Positions 4,437-22,873 of a stretch of DNA of 34,582 bases are shown piece by piece. The stretch is from a virus. Its lineage: Duplodnaviria > Caudoviricetes. The first letter of the stretch is position 1. Every line of letters starts with the position of its first letter. The stretch lies in IMG/VR virus record IMGVR_UViG_3300035544_000022, positions 1 to 34,582 of that record; one strand, 5' to 3'. The notes under the pieces were generated by a model. That model did no database searches, was not told the origin of the DNA, and saw only the letters and a program-made list of their open reading frames with translations. The position numbers were made by a program, and so were the translations under genes.

Positions 4437-4877
4437 ATGGTTAAAGTCGTAAAAGACAACCCGAAGAATAAACAATTCGCGAAAGAAAAAGACTTGCAAA
4501 CACACATAACAAAAAACATTAAAAGGTTTTTTTCTGACGTTGTTGGTGATGAAATGATTTATTTTGAAACCGAAAAAAACATACACGAACAAGAAACACG
4601 CTCACCAAGACCTAGTAGGGTAGACATCTATGTGTCGTGCAAAAAAAACGATTATATTTTAGAGTTGAAAAATCCCAAAGGTAAAACAGAAAACACCGCT
4701 GGGATAGGGCAATTACTTAAATACGCAACAATGATTGAAAAAGATGTGAAACTTTTGTTGATAACTACAATGTTTGATAACGAGTTAGGTAGAGCGATAG
4801 AAAAATTTAAACTCCCTATAAGGTATTTTTATATAGATAAGGAAAGCGCTTATGAATATAAAGGGGAGGTGATGTAG
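4437..4877 (+). CDS. PD-(D/E)xK nuclease (NucS C-terminal-like)
   Basis: EKDLQ...RVDIYV...ILELK...GIGQLLKY pattern (E..D..ExK..QxxxY); GGAGGTG RBS. Confidence 0.7.
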   Translation: MVKVVKDNPKNKQFAKEKDLQTHITKNIKRFFSDVVGDEMIYFETEKNIHEQETRSPRPSRVDIYVSCKKNDYILELKNPKGKTENTAGIGQLLKYATMIEKDVKLLLITTMFDNELGRAIEKFKLPIRYFYIDKESAYEYKGEVM

Positions 4878-5392
4878 TGGCTGGAGGAAGAAAAGGAAAA
4901 TATGCCTATTGGATAACTGAGGAGGGTTTGACAAAAATTGAAGGTTGGGCGCGAGATGGATTAACTAACGAGCAGATTTCTCATAATATCGGCATAACAT
5001 CGGCAACCTTATACGAATGGCAAAAAAAGTATGTTGAAATAGCAGACACCTTAAAAAAGGGAAAGGAAGTCGTTGATAGACAAGTAGAAAACGCTTTGTT
5101 AAAAAGGGCGTTGGGATACAGGTATGAAGAAGTGACGAGAGAGTTATCAGAAAGTGGTGATCTATCAATAACAAAGATTGTCACCAAAGAAGTTCAACCT
5201 GATACAACCGCGCAAATTTTTTGGTTAAAAAACAGAAAGCCGGACGATTGGCGAGAGAAGCCGGATAAAGTCTTTACAGAGAGAGCAAAGGCTGATACAG
5301 AGTTGGCGAGAGAGCGTATTAAGTTAATTAAAGAAACAACAAAAGACACAAGTCTATTAGACGCATTAACTGAAGCGTTACAAGATAAATAA
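4877..5392 (+). CDS. terS: Terminase small subunit
   Basis: N-terminal HTH (GLTNEQISHNIGITSATLYEW), VENALLKRALG, PDTTAQIFWLKNR; directly before terL. Confidence 0.88.
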   Translation: MAGGRKGKYAYWITEEGLTKIEGWARDGLTNEQISHNIGITSATLYEWQKKYVEIADTLKKGKEVVDRQVENALLKRALGYRYEEVTRELSESGDLSITKIVTKEVQPDTTAQIFWLKNRKPDDWREKPDKVFTERAKADTELARERIKLIKETTKDTSLLDALTEALQDK

Positions 5393-5409
5393 GGGGGGGT
5401 GGTTTTACC

Positions 5410-6683
5410 TTGTTCACTTTTTCAGATAAACAGAAAGAAATCATACAACGTCCATTCAATAAGACGTTAGAAGTTAACGAGGGTACTTAACCCCTAGAAG
5501 CGGAAAGACAACAGCAGGACACTTTAGATACGCTTCTTACTTGACAAAAACAGAAGATGAAAACCATTTAATATTAGCTTATAACCAAGAACAGGCGCAC
5601 CGTTTATTTATCGAGGGCGATGGAACAGGTTTAAAACATATATTTGGCGATTTAGCTAAGGAAAAGCATAGTGATGATGGTGACTATTTAGAAGTAACGA
5701 CAAAAAAAGGCGTTAGGCGAGTTTTCTACAAAGGTGGAGGGAAAGCTGATAGCCATAAAGCATTTCAGGGTATGAGTTTAGGTAGTGTCGTCTTTTGTGA
5801 GATTGATCTGTTGCATATGAGCGCAATACAAGAATCGTTTAGACGTACATTCGCTGCTAAAGATAGATACCACTTAGCTGACTTAAATCCACCCGCGCCA
5901 CATCATCCGGTTATCAAAGAAGTGTTTGACGTGCAAGATACAAGATGGACACACTGGACGATTGACGACAATCCGATTATAAAAGGTAAGCGTAAAGACG
6001 AGATTAAAGAAACCTTGTCTAAGAATCCATATCTATATAAACGAGATTGGTTAGGCCGGAGAGTAATTCCAACAGGCGTTATATATTCAATGTTTAACCA
6101 CGACGAACACATAAAAGAAGCGATTGAGGGTAAACCTATCGAAATGTTTTTCTCGGCCGATGGCGGACAATCTGATGCAACAAGTGCAAGTTGTAATATC
6201 GTTACGCGCATGAAAGACAAGACGTTTAGATTGTACAGGGTAGCACATTATTATCACAGTGGTGCTGACACAGGCCAAGTTAAAGCTATGAGTGTATACG
6301 CTAAAGAGATAAAAGAGTTTATCAACTGGTGCAAGAATGAGTATGATATGTATTTCTCACATGTATTCGTTGACCCCGCGTGTAAGAGCTTAAGGGAGGA
6401 ACTACACATGATTAACATAGATACAGATAAAGCTGATAATAACGCAAGAGAAGCGAAAGGCACAGGTAAAGGAATTGAGATAGGCATAGAGCGTGTTCAA
6501 AATGCATTGACTGATGGATTGTTTTATTTAGTAGAGAACGACACATACGATCACTATCATTTCTTGAAAGAAATCGGCATGTATGCACGAGATAAGAATG
6601 GTAAGCCTATCGATGACTTCAACCATGCGCTCGACGAAATGAAATATAGTTGCAATTACTTCTATAAACGATACGTCTTATAA
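5410..6683 (+). CDS. terL: Terminase large subunit (PBSX-like), encoded in two frames: 5410-5487 and 5493-6683
   Basis: TTG start with G-rich RBS gives MFTFSDKQ...EVNEGT*; second frame continues PRSGKTT, with Walker B (VVFCEID) and nuclease motifs (FSADGG, DDFNHALDE). Confidence 0.88.
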
Positions 6684-6695
6684 GGTGGTGAATCA

Positions 6696-8171
6696 ATGTT
6701 TGAGAAAGTTAAAGATACTATTAGGGGGTGGCTAAGTAAATTGGGAATCATCAAAGAATTAAACGACATACGCAATCATAAGAAAGTGCATATCGACGAA
6801 GAAGAATATAATCGCATTGCTTTGTGGACTGATTTGTACAGAGGTTATCCAGAAGATGGCGAACACGAATACAGTTACAAATTATTGTCTAAGTCAATGA
6901 CAAGACGACTACTAACGGTGAATATGCCGAAGATGGTAGCCAAAGAAATGGCGACGTTAGTGTTTAACGAGAAAGTAGAATTTAACGTAGATAACGACAT
7001 ATTCGACGACTACTTGCAAACAATACTGAAAGACAACAAGTTTTATTACAACATGCAATCGCATTATGAAAGAGCGTTAGCAACGTCAGGCATGGTGATT
7101 AAACCGTATGTGCAAGACGATAAAATTAAACTAAGTTTTGTAAGCGCGTTAAACTTTTTCCCGACCGCGTGGGAGAATGGAAATATCAAAGAGGGGTTTT
7201 TCACTAACCGCTTCAAGCGTGGCAAATATCATTACACGCATATTGAGTGGCACGAATGGGAAAACGAACGGTATCGGATCACGAACGAATTGTATCGTTC
7301 AGAATATGATGACAAGCTAGGTATTAGAGTATCGCTTGCAGAAGCGTTTGACGAACTAGAAGAAGTTGTCTACTTTAACGGACTAGATAAAAATACAATG
7401 TTTGTTTATATTAAACCAAACGAAGCGAACAACTTTAATAGCGATAGTCCGCTAGGTGTATCGATTTACGCCAACGCATTAGATACTATCTATACGATTG
7501 ATAGAATGATAGACAGTCTTAATCGTGAGTTCGTGCTTGGTAAGAAACGCATTATTGTCCCTGCCAACATGGTTAAGACAGTAACGGATAATAACGGAAA
7601 CTTAGTAAGATACTTTGATACAGAAGATGAAACGTACGAAGCTTTTAATGGTGGTGGTGATATGGAAGCTAACAATATCACCGATATTAAAGTAGAGTTA
7701 CGGGTAGACGAACATATCAGAGCAATCGAATTAATGTTAAAAATGTTAGCGACACAAACAGGATTCAGCAGCGGGACATTTTCTTTTGAAGATGGTGGAG
7801 TTAAGACAGCGACAGAAGTTGTGAGTGAGCAAAGTAAGACGTTTAAAACAAAGCAGTCGCATGAAGTGTTACTAGCGGAAGCGTTTAAAGACTTAGTAGA
7901 CTTGATCGCGTATCTTACGCAAGCGTTTAATTTAGGTGCGGTGCCAGAATATGAAGTGGCCATCAAGTTTGATGATAGTATCGCAGAAGATAAGACGGCA
8001 GAACAAGCGCGTATCATCACACTAGTACAAAACAAGCTGATGCCGAAAATTAAAGCTATTGCCAAAGTAAACGGCCTTACTGATGAAGAAGCGCAAGAAT
8101 GGTTAGAAATGATAGATGGTGAAAACAGAATGATTAGTGGCGGTGACCCAGGACTGTTTGGAGATGAATAA
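6696..8171 (+). CDS. Portal protein (A118/SPP1 gp6-like)
   Basis: 491 aa after terL; SPLGVSIYANA, KTATEVVSEQSKT, FDDSI motifs. Confidence 0.92.
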   Translation: MFEKVKDTIRGWLSKLGIIKELNDIRNHKKVHIDEEEYNRIALWTDLYRGYPEDGEHEYSYKLLSKSMTRRLLTVNMPKMVAKEMATLVFNEKVEFNVDNDIFDDYLQTILKDNKFYYNMQSHYERALATSGMVIKPYVQDDKIKLSFVSALNFFPTAWENGNIKEGFFTNRFKRGKYHYTHIEWHEWENERYRITNELYRSEYDDKLGIRVSLAEAFDELEEVVYFNGLDKNTMFVYIKPNEANNFNSDSPLGVSIYANALDTIYTIDRMIDSLNREFVLGKKRIIVPANMVKTVTDNNGNLVRYFDTEDETYEAFNGGGDMEANNITDIKVELRVDEHIRAIELMLKMLATQTGFSSGTFSFEDGGVKTATEVVSEQSKTFKTKQSHEVLLAEAFKDLVDLIAYLTQAFNLGAVPEYEVAIKFDDSIAEDKTAEQARIITLVQNKLMPKIKAIAKVNGLTDEEAQEWLEMIDGENRMISGGDPGLFGDE

Positions 8172-20012: not shown

Positions 20013-21470
20013 ATGGCTGATAAAATGATGCGTATGGCTGGACGAGATTACGCCTCCGGCCAAGCTAAAGCAATAAAAACAAACAACACAGGAGCAATCG
20101 AAGTCGCTAAATTAGATGAAATATTGAGTAATCAAAAAACAATAATCAACGTTATGAATAGCGATAAGTTAATTTTCGGTACGTACTGGGATAAGTCGAG
20201 TAATCCAGTTATGCAACGTACAGATGCGGCTGCGGGTTTAAACGCAGCAATAGGCATTGATGGCGAATACGTTGTTAATGACTTCGATAAGATGCCGATT
20301 TTCGGTGAAATACACGACGTGATGGACGAATACGGCAATTACTTCGTCAGAATACCTAAGTTTTACATTAAAAAAGTTGATGGTCCTAATTTTAAACTTG
20401 TTCAGGTATCAAAAACACGCTATCCGGGCTTTTACTTACCATTTGTTTTTTGGGATTTTGCCAATAATGTTGAGCTTGATTACTTTGATTTCGGTAAGTA
20501 CAAAGGCTCCGAAAGTGCAGATGGAAAACTGGAATCTAAGCCAGACAAGTTTCCGTTAATTAATAAAAATATTGTGCAGTTTAGAATTTTAGCAACAGCA
20601 AACAACGATGAAGTGAACGGCGTGACTGGCTATCAACAATTAGATATACACGCTGTGGACGTCTTACAGACGTTATTTACTGTTGAATTTGCAACGTTAC
20701 ACTCACAGTCTGTCATGCCCGGATTCACTGCAGGTAATTACTCAGATTCTCATGTTGTGACAATTGAAGAACTATCAACAAATCGCGCGATCGTATCAAA
20801 TGCAACAGCAAGCGCTTTTAGCGTTGGTGATCCAATCTCAATCGGTACGAGTCGCGGCGGTAATCAAATTTTTTACGGTCGAGAAATCACAGCTATCACA
20901 GTATACGACGCTGAAAATCAAGCCATTGAATTTAGCGGCGATCCTGTTGATATTAGCGTCGGAAATTTTGTTTATAACACCGGCTGGAAGAATGGATTTA
21001 GTCGCAATGTTTTGGCGACGAGTGGCGCTATCAAATCGAATAACGGAAAAACACCTTGTCATTATCGAGGGATTGAATCGCCGTGGGGCGACATTTATCA
21101 ATTCGTTGACGGCGTTAATTTTACAGATCATCAGACGTGGACGTGCGAAAACGCGAAACTATACGCTAGCAACGTATTCGCGGATCCGTACAAAAAAGTC
21201 AGCTATTTAAATTCGGCTACAAACGGATACGTAACAGATTTAGGACATGATCCGACACATCCGTACGCAGCACTACCGATTTCTGTTGGCGGAGGAACGA
21301 CAACATATTATGCAGATAACTATTATCAAACGCTAGGCGCGAGAATCGCACTCTTCGGTGGCTCTTGGTCCTCTGGAGCGTCTGCCGGTTTGTTCTTCTG
21401 GTATCTGTATTTTACGTCTTCGGCTGCGACTGTCACTATTGGCGGGCGCCTTCTTAAAAAGGCCTCTTAA
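20013..21470 (+). CDS. DGR target protein: probable receptor-binding protein with C-terminal C-type-lectin-like fold
   Basis: FVRIPKFY, YRGIESPWGDIYQFVDG, ends FGGSW...IGGRLLKK; the VR forms its 3' end; lies in the tail module. Confidence 0.88.
   Translation: MADKMMRMAGRDYASGQAKAIKTNNTGAIEVAKLDEILSNQKTIINVMNSDKLIFGTYWDKSSNPVMQRTDAAAGLNAAIGIDGEYVVNDFDKMPIFGEIHDVMDEYGNYFVRIPKFYIKKVDGPNFKLVQVSKTRYPGFYLPFVFWDFANNVELDYFDFGKYKGSESADGKLESKPDKFPLINKNIVQFRILATANNDEVNGVTGYQQLDIHAVDVLQTLFTVEFATLHSQSVMPGFTAGNYSDSHVVTIEELSTNRAIVSNATASAFSVGDPISIGTSRGGNQIFYGREITAITVYDAENQAIEFSGDPVDISVGNFVYNTGWKNGFSRNVLATSGAIKSNNGKTPCHYRGIESPWGDIYQFVDGVNFTDHQTWTCENAKLYASNVFADPYKKVSYLNSATNGYVTDLGHDPTHPYAALPISVGGGTTTYYADNYYQTLGARIALFGGSWSSGASAGLFFWYLYFTSSAATVTIGGRLLKKAS
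21351..21450 (+). repeat. DGR variable repeat (VR)
   Basis: Ungapped alignment to 21529-21628 with 17 mismatches, all opposite A in TR. Confidence 0.96.
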
Positions 21471-21498
21471 GGGGGGTAAGGGGGGAGTACTCCCCCCT
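21441..21498 (+). promoter_or_regulatory. DGR homing signals: GC element, IMH and hairpin/cruciform
   Basis: GGCGGGCGCC, then TTCTTAAAAAG (TR copy reads CTCTTATTAAAG), then perfect 20-bp palindrome AGGGGGGAGTACTCCCCCCT at 21479-21498. Confidence 0.85.
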
Positions 21499-21505
21499 AG
21501 GTTTT

Positions 21506-21740
21506 GGGGTGGAAGATGCAAGCTCGCGCAATTCGGTGGCAATTGGAACAATGGAGCGAATGCCGGTTTGTTCTTCTGGAATCTGAATTATACGTCTTCG
21601 AATGCGAATGTCAATATTGGCGGGCGCCCTCTTATTAAAGAGAATGCAGTAATTACTATTGCATCTTTCATTCCGCGCCACTTGGCGAAAATTAGACCGA
21701 CAAAGAGCACGGCTGAGTAGCGATGCCGAAAATCCGTGAG
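21506..21740 (+). ncRNA. DGR template RNA core (5' flank + TR + structured spacer)
   Basis: 16-bp helix 21506-21521/21659-21674 with three G-U pairs; spacer hairpins CGCC-actt-GGCG and CACGG...CCGTG. Ends approximate. Confidence 0.65.
21529..21628 (+). repeat. DGR template repeat (TR)
   Basis: Nine AAY codons in the VR-equivalent frame; 24 adenines; intergenic, upstream of RT. Confidence 0.96.
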
Positions 21741-21766
21741 GTTAATAAGAAAAAAGGAGAAACTCT

Positions 21767-22873
21767 TTGAAAAGATTTGGTTACTTATTTGACGAAATAA
21801 CGTCAATAGACAATATACAATTAGCAATTCATAAAGCGTCCAAAGGTAAGAAAAAACAACGTAGAGTTATTGCTATCCTGGATAACGAATATTTCTACGC
21901 TAATCAAATTAGAAACATGTTGATCAATGACGACTTTATCCCCTGTGAACCCAAAATCACAACGATAAAGGACGCGGGAACAGGAAAAGAACGCAAGATA
22001 TACAAACCTAAATTTTATCCGGACCAAATCATACATTGGTCGCTGATGTTGGTGTTAGAGCCAATTTTGATGAAGGGTATGTATCGTTATTCGTGTGGGA
22101 GTATCCCGGGACGAGGGACGTCATTTGGCCAAAAGGCGGTGAGAAAATGGATGGATAACGACCGTAAGAACACAAAATATTGTTTTAAGATGGATGTTAA
22201 AAAGTTTTATAACTCCATCGATAACGATTTGATGAAAGCGTGTTTTAAGAAGAAAATCAAAGATAAAAAGTGTCTGAATCTTATTTTTAAGATAATCGAC
22301 AGTGTGGATGGACAGCCAATTGGTTACTATACATCACCTTGGTTTTCAAATTTCTTTTTACAAGGCTTAGATCATTACATCAAAGAAAAATTAAAAGCTG
22401 TTTATTATGTGCGTTACGTGGATGACTTAGTTATTTTCGGTCCAAACAAAAGAAAATTACACAAGATGCACAAGATGATAAAAGTCTATCTCGCTAATCT
22501 TAAACTAAGTATTAAAAAGAATTGGCAAGTGTTTCGAACAGCATGCAGAGACGTTGATTTTCTAGGTGTAAGGTTCTTCAAAGATAAAACAATTTTGAGA
22601 AAGAGAAACGCACTTAAAATAAGACGTCGAGTTAAGAAAATCATCAAAAAAGGTTACTTAAATGAAAAAGATGCATCCGCTGTTGTGAGTTACTGGGGAT
22701 GGATCAAGAGAACGAACAGCTACACGTTTTACAACAAGTACGTCAGTCCGTTTATCACGATAGAATTATGTAGAAAGGTAGTGAGTGTTAATGCCAAAAT
22801 ACGGCAAGCTAATCAATGGAGAATTACAAACAAGCAACCATATTATGCAAGATTACAAACCAATTACGTATGA
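21767..22873 (+). CDS. DGR reverse transcriptase
   Basis: KERKIY, SCGSIPGRG, KMDVKKFY, GQPIGYYTSPWFSN, YVRYVDD, VDFLG, SYWGW; AAGGAG RBS with TTG start. Confidence 0.96.
   Translation: MKRFGYLFDEITSIDNIQLAIHKASKGKKKQRRVIAILDNEYFYANQIRNMLINDDFIPCEPKITTIKDAGTGKERKIYKPKFYPDQIIHWSLMLVLEPILMKGMYRYSCGSIPGRGTSFGQKAVRKWMDNDRKNTKYCFKMDVKKFYNSIDNDLMKACFKKKIKDKKCLNLIFKIIDSVDGQPIGYYTSPWFSNFFLQGLDHYIKEKLKAVYYVRYVDDLVIFGPNKRKLHKMHKMIKVYLANLKLSIKKNWQVFRTACRDVDFLGVRFFKDKTILRKRNALKIRRRVKKIIKKGYLNEKDASAVVSYWGWIKRTNSYTFYNKYVSPFITIELCRKVVSVNAKIRQANQWRITNKQPYYARLQTNYV

Follow-up and report, generated by a model that had tools for sequence, protein, structure and literature searches.

Interruption of terL in the Window

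How does a tailed virus make its large terminase subunit (TerL) when five extra bases, beginning with a stop codon, interrupt the ATP-binding loop of this DNA-packaging motor gene? The question is raised by the window, a stretch of 34,582 nt that forms a linear virus record (IMGVR_UViG_3300035544_000022; Caudoviricetes) assessed as 87% complete. By PHROG and profile annotation its gene order is terS, terL and portal, with an uninterrupted head-tail operon that starts at an SPP1-type portal gene (nt 6696–8171, + strand; profile and PHROG matches). The GC content near terL is about 37%.

The terS gene (nt 4877–5392, + strand; PHROG 309, E 2e-61) abuts the terL leader, where an RBS-like sequence, AGGGGGGGTGGT, is found at nt 5392–5403 (+ strand). 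It is a strong Shine–Dalgarno (SD) sequence whose type, G[GA]GGTG[GA], is by motif counts characteristic of split alleles. The first part of terL (nt 5410–5487, + strand) was delimited by its frame, by homologue alignment and by a structure model, and runs for 26 codons from a TTG start to ...EVNEGT, followed by TAA. The sequence at the break reads GAG GGT ACT TAA, or GGT ACT-TA-ACC CCT across the gap. The predicted take-off codon, ACT (Thr; nt 5485–5487, + strand), is followed by the stop TAA (nt 5488–5490), which overlaps the predicted landing codon ACC (nt 5490–5492), and the resume codon CCT lies at nt 5493–5495. The coding gap, TAACC, occupies nt 5488–5492 (+ strand). ACT and ACC are synonymous rather than identical, and under standard wobble rules one tRNA-Thr(GGU) reads both. 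The frame from nt 5490 is open for 397 codons (TPRSGKT...) to a stop ending at nt 6683, and the second part of terL (nt 5493–6683, + strand; Terminase_6N and PHROG terL matches) encodes P-R-S-G-K-T, the rest of the ATPase domain and the nuclease domain (396 aa). If nt 5488–5492 are omitted, 26 and 396 residues join into a TerL of 422 aa; this length, already proposed in the preliminary description, matches the 422 residues of a continuous homologue (L006) with 96% aa identity to the window protein. Neither a second terL nor a tRNA gene, suppressor tRNA included, was found in the window.

The joined protein has the characteristics of an SPP1/PBSX-like (D6E-like) large terminase, namely an N-terminal ASCE ATPase with GxxRxGKT, a C-terminal nuclease and a gene position between terS and portal. 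Skipping the gap restores the conserved G-T-P-R-S-G-K-T exactly, and all 11 continuous homologues aligned (56–71% identity) have an unchanged G-T-P-R-S, in agreement with the earlier remark that the product of a −1 slip, EGYLTPRSGKT, would break the spacing of the motif. The best solved relative of the continuous homologues is D6E TerL (5OE8), with the P-loop G-S-I-R-A-G-K-T; its Arg44 is required for ATP hydrolysis according to the available text of PMC5727402. In the model of L006 (mean pLDDT 78, pTM 0.52), the first part contains a helix (residues 6–13) and a beta-strand (residues 20–25) leading into the P-loop, after which a helix spans residues 31–45.

Allelic Variation at the Site

The site was checked on assembled contigs, not raw reads. 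Contigs from runs X3, X4 and X6, which have three study codes but may belong to one campaign, cross it with no alignment gaps and 0–5 other letters, at depths of about 120–730, and record 21 of run X7 covers nt 5425–5713 (289 nt) with 22 other letters and again no gaps. The split of terL inside Walker A by ACT-TAA-CC is carried by contigs of all four runs, diverged strains included; sequencing or assembly error, which the preliminary description had called unlikely, is rejected as the source of the break. A private mutation is likewise rejected, because the gap recurs in diverged strains and the same junction geometry is seen in related terL genes.

Contigs without the five bases also occur in these runs. 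Those listed carry 2–9 other differences each, and so represent other alleles rather than excision products. In runs X3–X7, at least three terL 5′ alleles, distinguished at nt 5391–5411 and 5470–5494 of the window, coexist at high depth, among them one that starts at ATG behind a different leader, and one that is continuous and L006-like.

Conservation of the Gap among Related Terminases

Three collections were scanned with a pattern that leaves the junction free (E-G, nine free bases, P-R-S-G-K-T-T), giving 146 matches (23 viral, 38 genome and 85 metagenome). Thirty-nine of them are terL (21 viral, 2 genome and 16 metagenome), a figure in which some contigs stand in two collections and 14 of the viral ones belong to a single Streptococcus-type lineage. 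A stop codon directly follows the last sense codon in all 39, with TAA, TGA and TAG all represented; that codon is Thr in 38, and Thr-stop-Thr (with TAA or TGA) is found in 37, the others being ACT-TAG-CG and GGT-TGA-GC. The gap is conserved in these homologous terL genes, a point that the preliminary description had listed as a check. Among the 107 non-terL chance matches there was no Thr-stop-Thr, the one match flagged (L387) being a short terL contig, and only 8 of the 1024 random 5-mers (0.8%) give a stop with a Thr landing codon.

There are 20 distinct +5 site sequences, the geometry persists at 50–70% protein identity, and carriers include Streptococcus pyogenes prophage 315.4 and Enterococcus prophages. 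Take-off is at ACT in 16 of 19 +5 representatives, compared to 9 of 69 Thr codons at continuous sites. Landing codons match poorly in L386 (ACT to GCG) and L346 (GGT to AGC), a single contig each, and the change from ACT to ACG in L046, L312 and L385 needs four-way wobble. Split contigs make up about 5% of the terL family (26 viral contigs against an estimated 510 or so continuous viral relatives).

A search that did not depend on any pattern found 15 of 55 phage records matching in two pieces (14 from S. pyogenes, and Bacillus phage LY4). Four of these were examined: 315.4, phiNIH1.1 and Javan523 have ACT-TG-ACC, and LY4 has a +1 form. Among plasmids, 4 of 26 records match in two pieces and all four have ACA-TA-ACG; the terL of B. 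mycoides p52 is otherwise intact, and the other three represent one decayed remnant. This decayed lineage (L313, L505–L507), damaged by a further frameshift, a stop codon and truncation, resides on large B. thuringiensis and B. cereus plasmids. The downstream frame is intact in all full-length split lineages but one.

Public annotations of these genes vary. Those of phiNIH1.1 and LY4 lack Walker A, that of 315.4 has the wrong start (in the NCBI record, a TTG overlapping the stop), and B. mycoides p52 has none for terL. Prophage 315.4 is inducible according to a passage of a review (PMC8228536), a statement that does not in itself extend to packaged particles. LY4 is a deposited phage genome, and a literature search on its viability found no paper.

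Other Gap Sizes

Scans for 1–29 extra bases, placed after T (48 + 31 matches) or after P/R (9 + 19 matches), found terL gaps of +5, +1, +7 and +6 only, at the site E-G-T-P-R-S. The +7 gap is CGA TAA C CGT (two contigs), the +6 gap is CGA TAA CGA (one contig, L483), and the +1 gap is ACT CCC TAG (two contigs in the scans and three records overall: LY4, which is L390, L125 and L136). All four sizes place a stop in the A site, and immediately ahead of the conserved resume codon each has a codon for the same amino acid. Their landings fall in all three frames, so a single frameshift or reinitiation model cannot cover all gaps. The Arg-stop-Arg gaps of +6 and +7 are independent versions within the same motif and count in favour of a bypass.

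The +6 site, at nt 1261–1295 of L483, is a candidate natural in-frame stop-hop (CGA-TAA-CGA), known from a single 2.2 kb contig without the nuclease gene (see below) upstream. The +1 allele (LY4, L125 and L136) has an apparent ATT start behind a strong SD, and in LY4 an annotated HNH gene lies directly downstream of terL.

Selection and Phylogeny

Of 39 listed differences in terL among strains of the window virus, read in the frames of nt 5410 and 5490, 34 are synonymous and 5 non-synonymous, and in the X7 contig 18 of 19 listed differences are synonymous. Comparisons of split alleles with each other gave omega values of 0.00–0.04 downstream of the gap (L052/L336, 0.005; L299/L268, 0.01; L046/L370, 0.025). 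Upstream, where codons are few, synonymous and non-synonymous changes stand at 4:0 for L052/L336, 3:0 for the window and L006, and 1.5:2.5 for L046/L312. Together these ratios point to strong purifying selection on both halves within split lineages.

A quick maximum likelihood tree, with the gap excluded, was built from 84 representatives of the 181 loci (out of 230 classified) that had at least 250 aa. The 13 +5 rows require nine changes on this tree, all forced by starred branches, compared to a mean of 12.4 when shuffled. As judged from the tree, the +5 gap has been repeatedly gained, lost or exchanged. On a weakly resolved tree built from the 5′ DNA segment, ten changes are still required; that tree has too few columns and did not show one origin of the segment. 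Continuous sisters of split alleles have 94–97.5% identity to them. L125 and the continuous L004 are 97% identical overall and differ at 31 of 69 bases upstream and at 27 of the first 60 bases downstream, a block of differences resembling a conversion tract.

Leader and Recoding Signals

The leader motif G[GA]GGTG[GA], which was chosen post hoc, occurs in 20 of the 23 representatives that are split and in 4 of the 69 that are continuous, and three of the four continuous carriers are sisters of split alleles. The median SD energy is −14.8 kcal/mol in split compared to −8.2 kcal/mol in continuous genes (p of about 0.02–0.03 over 10 independent pairs). The strong leader SD may be the 3′ end of the nuclease element, a compensation for a low hop rate, or both.

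No take-off stem-loop or conserved RNA structure was consistent over 19 split loci (z-scores of 0.04 and −0.39 for the window); a single fold of nt 5390–5500 gave a z-score of −2.4 with a diffuse ensemble. The GAG triplet, a candidate mini-SD, precedes 19 of 21 sites of the +5, +6 and +7 types and 40 of 69 continuous ones (raw p 0.008). On independent pairs the signal fell to a p of about 0.6 with equal duplex energies, and an internal SD at GAG-GG was not upheld once kinship had been corrected for in this way. Given neither conserved structure nor an internal SD independent of kinship, the hop may be inefficient. The 5-nt bypass of the preliminary description is well supported by comparison, through a geometry conserved under varying stops and codons, purifying selection on both halves and the +6 and +7 versions. 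A search for T4-like stimulators found neither a stem-loop nor an internal SD.

Nuclease Genes Adjacent to Split terL

In several distant +5 loci a gene for a NUMOD4-HNH nuclease of 176–181 aa (NUMOD4 + HNH_3) lies between terS and terL. Among loci with at least 250 nt of upstream sequence, 8 of 57 of the +5 type have the nuclease directly upstream, and none of 161 continuous ones does. After clustering of 221 loci it is found in 5 of the 12 clusters that are split and in 0 of the 39 that are continuous (p 3e-4), or in 4 of 11 and 0 of 39 when a cluster found through the nuclease is left out (p 0.0014). It is absent from the remaining 7 of the 12 split clusters. A further four split loci, and none that is continuous, retain remnants of the nuclease tail (its last codons, a motif chosen post hoc).

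A search with the nuclease as query returned at least 80 loci from 35 of 64 parts scanned. Two belong to the subfamily, one known and one new (L395), and both lie directly before a split terL, that of L395 having the +7 gap. In the other 78 loci this terL was absent within 2.5 kb. The subfamily comprises about 33 protein clusters, with named members in Enterococcus, Lactococcus, Holdemania, Virgibacillus and the B. cereus group. Among whole genomes (134 of the family, and samples of 401 each at class and order level), nuclease loci were found only in two known Enterococcus genomes, and none were found in plasmids.

A search of the window with HNH profiles returned nothing, there is no HNH gene between its terS and terL, and no nuclease remnant was found in it. 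The window has the leader and the gap with neither nuclease nor remnant, so a nuclease origin is extrapolated here from the relatives.

Other nuclease-related features were observed near terS in the window and its relatives. The terS of L336 (nt 849–1436) ends in a tail that looks like the two termini of the nuclease gene found in the relatives L052 and L305, which suggests an internal deletion and fusion. In a split B. mycoides plasmid prophage (L508), a GIY-YIG nuclease gene (nt 1–226) two genes upstream of terS is a possible replacement mobiliser. Directly upstream of terS in the window, an ORF (nt 4437–4877) encodes a PD-(D/E)XK-like nuclease of 146 aa (atlas scores 0.90–0.92) with no Pfam or PHROG match; L006 has a different gene at this position, and a different terS. 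A role of this ORF as replacement mobiliser is unsupported, as no homologue was found in named phages or in the other loci fetched.

Proposed Mechanism

By comparison of the sequences, the terL break is a real and conserved recoding site, and full-length TerL is likely made by a short bypass, or stop-hop. Peptidyl-tRNA-Thr(GGU), weakly paired to ACU, would wait while UAA occupies the A site; the tRNA would then release ACU, slide five bases and re-pair at ACC, and translation would resume at CCU to give G-T-P-R-S-G-K-T.

The gap probably arose and spread as an immunity allele of the free-standing NUMOD4-HNH nuclease between terS and terL, and this origin taken together with the stop-hop is a reading we consider likely. 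The nuclease would cut conserved Walker A DNA about 75–100 bp downstream of its gene, and the gap, by analogy with MobA, would spoil the target without altering the protein. Homing would copy the nuclease, the leader, the first 25 codons and the gap as one; the nuclease would often be lost later, apparently in the window as well, and the gap would sometimes revert. TerL is needed in few copies, and a strong RBS would make up for infrequent hopping. The gap, its conservation, the selection and the nuclease linkage in relatives were observed; we infer the hop itself, the nuclease target, the protection by the gap, a former nuclease in the lineage of the window and the RBS compensation alike. The chances appear evenly balanced that homing nucleases of Bacillota phages have repeatedly evolved minimal, structure-free stop-hop cassettes within 12 bases of the terL Walker A motif, a joint claim that takes in the +5 Thr, +5 Gly, +6/+7 Arg and +1 Pro forms.

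Alternative Explanations

The bypass could be real and be kept as a regulator that benefits the phage, by limiting TerL or by sensing release-factor or tRNA status, with an incidental link to the nuclease. In 7 of 12 clusters, and in the window, the gap does persist with no nuclease present, a regulatory role was proposed for bypassing in Hau3 (PMC10732093, available text), and nucleases of homing endonuclease type are often found near terminase genes (14–35% of neighbourhoods in the available text of PMC10055350). However, most relatives are continuous, including sisters at 94–97.5% identity, single runs hold gapped and ungapped alleles side by side, split genes have a stronger rather than a weaker leader SD, and the nuclease is in 0 of 39 continuous clusters, making this reading unlikely. 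The specific proposal of the preliminary description, that recoding limits TerL relative to TerS, is unsupported given that about 95% of relatives are continuous, that the RBS of split genes is much stronger, and that the nuclease is associated with the gap. Quite improbable is a TerL of two chains assembling in trans, the 26-aa piece and a chain reinitiated at a codon overlapping the stop (TTG, ATA or TTA), although the T4 topoisomerase split by MobA works in this manner (bioRxiv 2022.08.31.505936, available text). TTG overlaps TGA in the S. pyogenes lineage (gap TTGA, a start-stop overlap) and in L346, ATA overlaps TAA in L043, and NCBI annotates terL of 315.4 from that TTG, but in the window and most lineages the codon is TTA, which is not a start codon, and the +6, +7 and +1 forms offer no start there. 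The cut would also fall inside the P-loop, between strand 20–25 and helix 31–45 of the L006 model, and terminal extensions of the kind seen in the MobA split are absent.

A −1 (or +2) frameshift would yield a full-length TerL with two extra residues, E-G-Y-L-T-P-R-S-G-K-T, and is very unlikely. In every +5 case examined the −1 frame stays open through the gap, and GAG GGN permits a Gly tRNA slip in many of them, but the slippery sequence is not conserved (GAA GGC/GGT in L313, L346 and L508), the inserted residues vary (YL, HL, HI, NL), and the terL gap scans up to 29 nt found no in-frame insertion at the motif save the stop-containing +6. A frameshift also leaves unexplained the +7, +6 and +1 forms, and the Thr codon kept at both take-off and landing. 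It is more doubtful still that terL is dead, by a private or lineage mutation, in a phage that is defective or borrows TerL from a continuous relative. Continuous alleles in the same runs, the one decayed split lineage of Bacillus and the partial, linear state of the window (87% complete) fit with this; strong purifying selection on both halves in split lineages, the same geometry at 50–70% protein identity and the downstream frames, which are intact in every full-length split lineage but one, do not. Removal of the five bases from the RNA, as a micro-intron or by polymerase slippage, or from the DNA in a subpopulation, is hardly conceivable, even if a terL intron with an adjacent nuclease exists in ICP1 (PMC10055350, available text). 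A ribozyme cannot be built from five bases, the site has no homopolymer on which a 5-base slip could occur, the gap-less contigs all bear other substitutions, and removal would need neither a leading stop nor a landing codon for the same amino acid. A self-splicing intron or an intein in terL was rejected, the insert being only 5 nt.

Comparison with Known Systems

Natural bypassing is known from T4 gene 60, from the byps of yeast mitochondria and, tentatively, from Hau3. The terL site has features of the first: a stop directly after take-off (ACT-TAA in the window, and 39 of 39 terL matches), a landing codon for the same tRNA just 5′ of the resume codon (exceptions L346 and L386), and purifying selection in two frames with exact restoration of the protein. 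According to the available text on T4 gene 60 and MobA (bioRxiv 2022.08.31.505936), the two systems share the stop right after take-off and the same-tRNA landing, location in an essential phage gene with an HNH nuclease just upstream (for terL, in 5 of 12 split clusters and not in the window), a patchy distribution among near-identical genomes, and a nuclease often decayed or lost where the gap stays. By the same text, the T4 gap is about 50 nt long with a stem-loop and mini-SD, whereas the terL gap has 5 (also 6 or 7) nt and neither signal was detected. The MobA element sits in the topoisomerase large subunit, splits the ORF and adds terminal extensions; the terL site lies in Walker A and has no extensions, and its nuclease, located between genes in Bacillota phages, is a NUMOD4-HNH protein of 175–181 aa from a different HNH subfamily. 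The terL site works like the T4 gene 60/MobA cassette and is not a member of it, having another host gene, another nuclease, no extensions and no structured gap.

The terminase of Streptomyces phage Hau3 (also of prophages StrepC.1 and S. catenulae) likewise has a short non-coding insert in the large subunit, and for its 10-nt bypass the junction peptide was demonstrated in E. coli with UAA in the A site (PMC10732093, available text). Judging by the printed sequences, the Hau3 g6/g7 junction (KGWG|KD) looks to us like a Walker A motif. In Hau3 the trigger is a rare sense codon, UUA, a regulator was proposed, and the inserts are 7–10 nt with predicted RNA structures (PMC10732093); in the window a stop occupies the A site in frame. 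Hau3 also differs in TerL family and host phylum, and the available description of Hau3 mentions no nuclease link.

In synthetic E. coli stop-hops, a stop stands between matched codons, with nine bases giving one residue, which is exactly the form of L483; the available text of a 2016 review describes such hops from synthetic constructs only, with no natural in-frame case known (PMC5009743). Unlike these, the terL sites are natural, conserved and in an essential gene. The CCC-TAG of the +1 allele, which occurs in Bacillus LY4, L125 and L136 and not at the window's own site, has the same shifty-stop form as the +1 frameshift at CCC-stop in Listeria phages PSA, A118 and A500 (PMC5009743, available text). 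In Listeria the shift gives optional extended structural proteins, whereas in +1 terL alleles it would be required for any TerL.

A literature search, with most subscription journals and bioRxiv supplements outside its reach, found no paper describing this terL site, which appears to be a new, minimal variant of nuclease-linked translational bypassing. On the evenly balanced reading of repeatedly evolved cassettes given above, terL stop-hops would be a fourth route to immunity without protein change, next to introns, inteins and split genes; an essential gene would for the first time be seen to hold a natural in-frame stop-hop, and well-known S. pyogenes prophages would depend on ribosome hopping. 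Within one essential motif, the alleles make up a natural series of hops as short as they can be; continuous sisters at 94–97.5% identity serve as controls, and some carriers have Enterococcus or Bacillus hosts that can be cultured. With these alleles one can test whether matched codons around a stop are by themselves enough for an essential gene, and whether immunity to homing endonucleases is the general origin of bypass gaps. Where a split terL is mis-annotated, intact prophages may be judged defective.

Retroelement of the Window

The window also carries a diversity-generating retroelement (nt 20013–22873). The variable repeat (nt 21346–21456) lies at the 3′ end of a tail gene (nt 20013–21470) and is followed by the template repeat (nt 21524–21634), with 17 of the 19 mismatches between them at template adenines, and by the reverse transcriptase gene of the element (nt 21767–22873).
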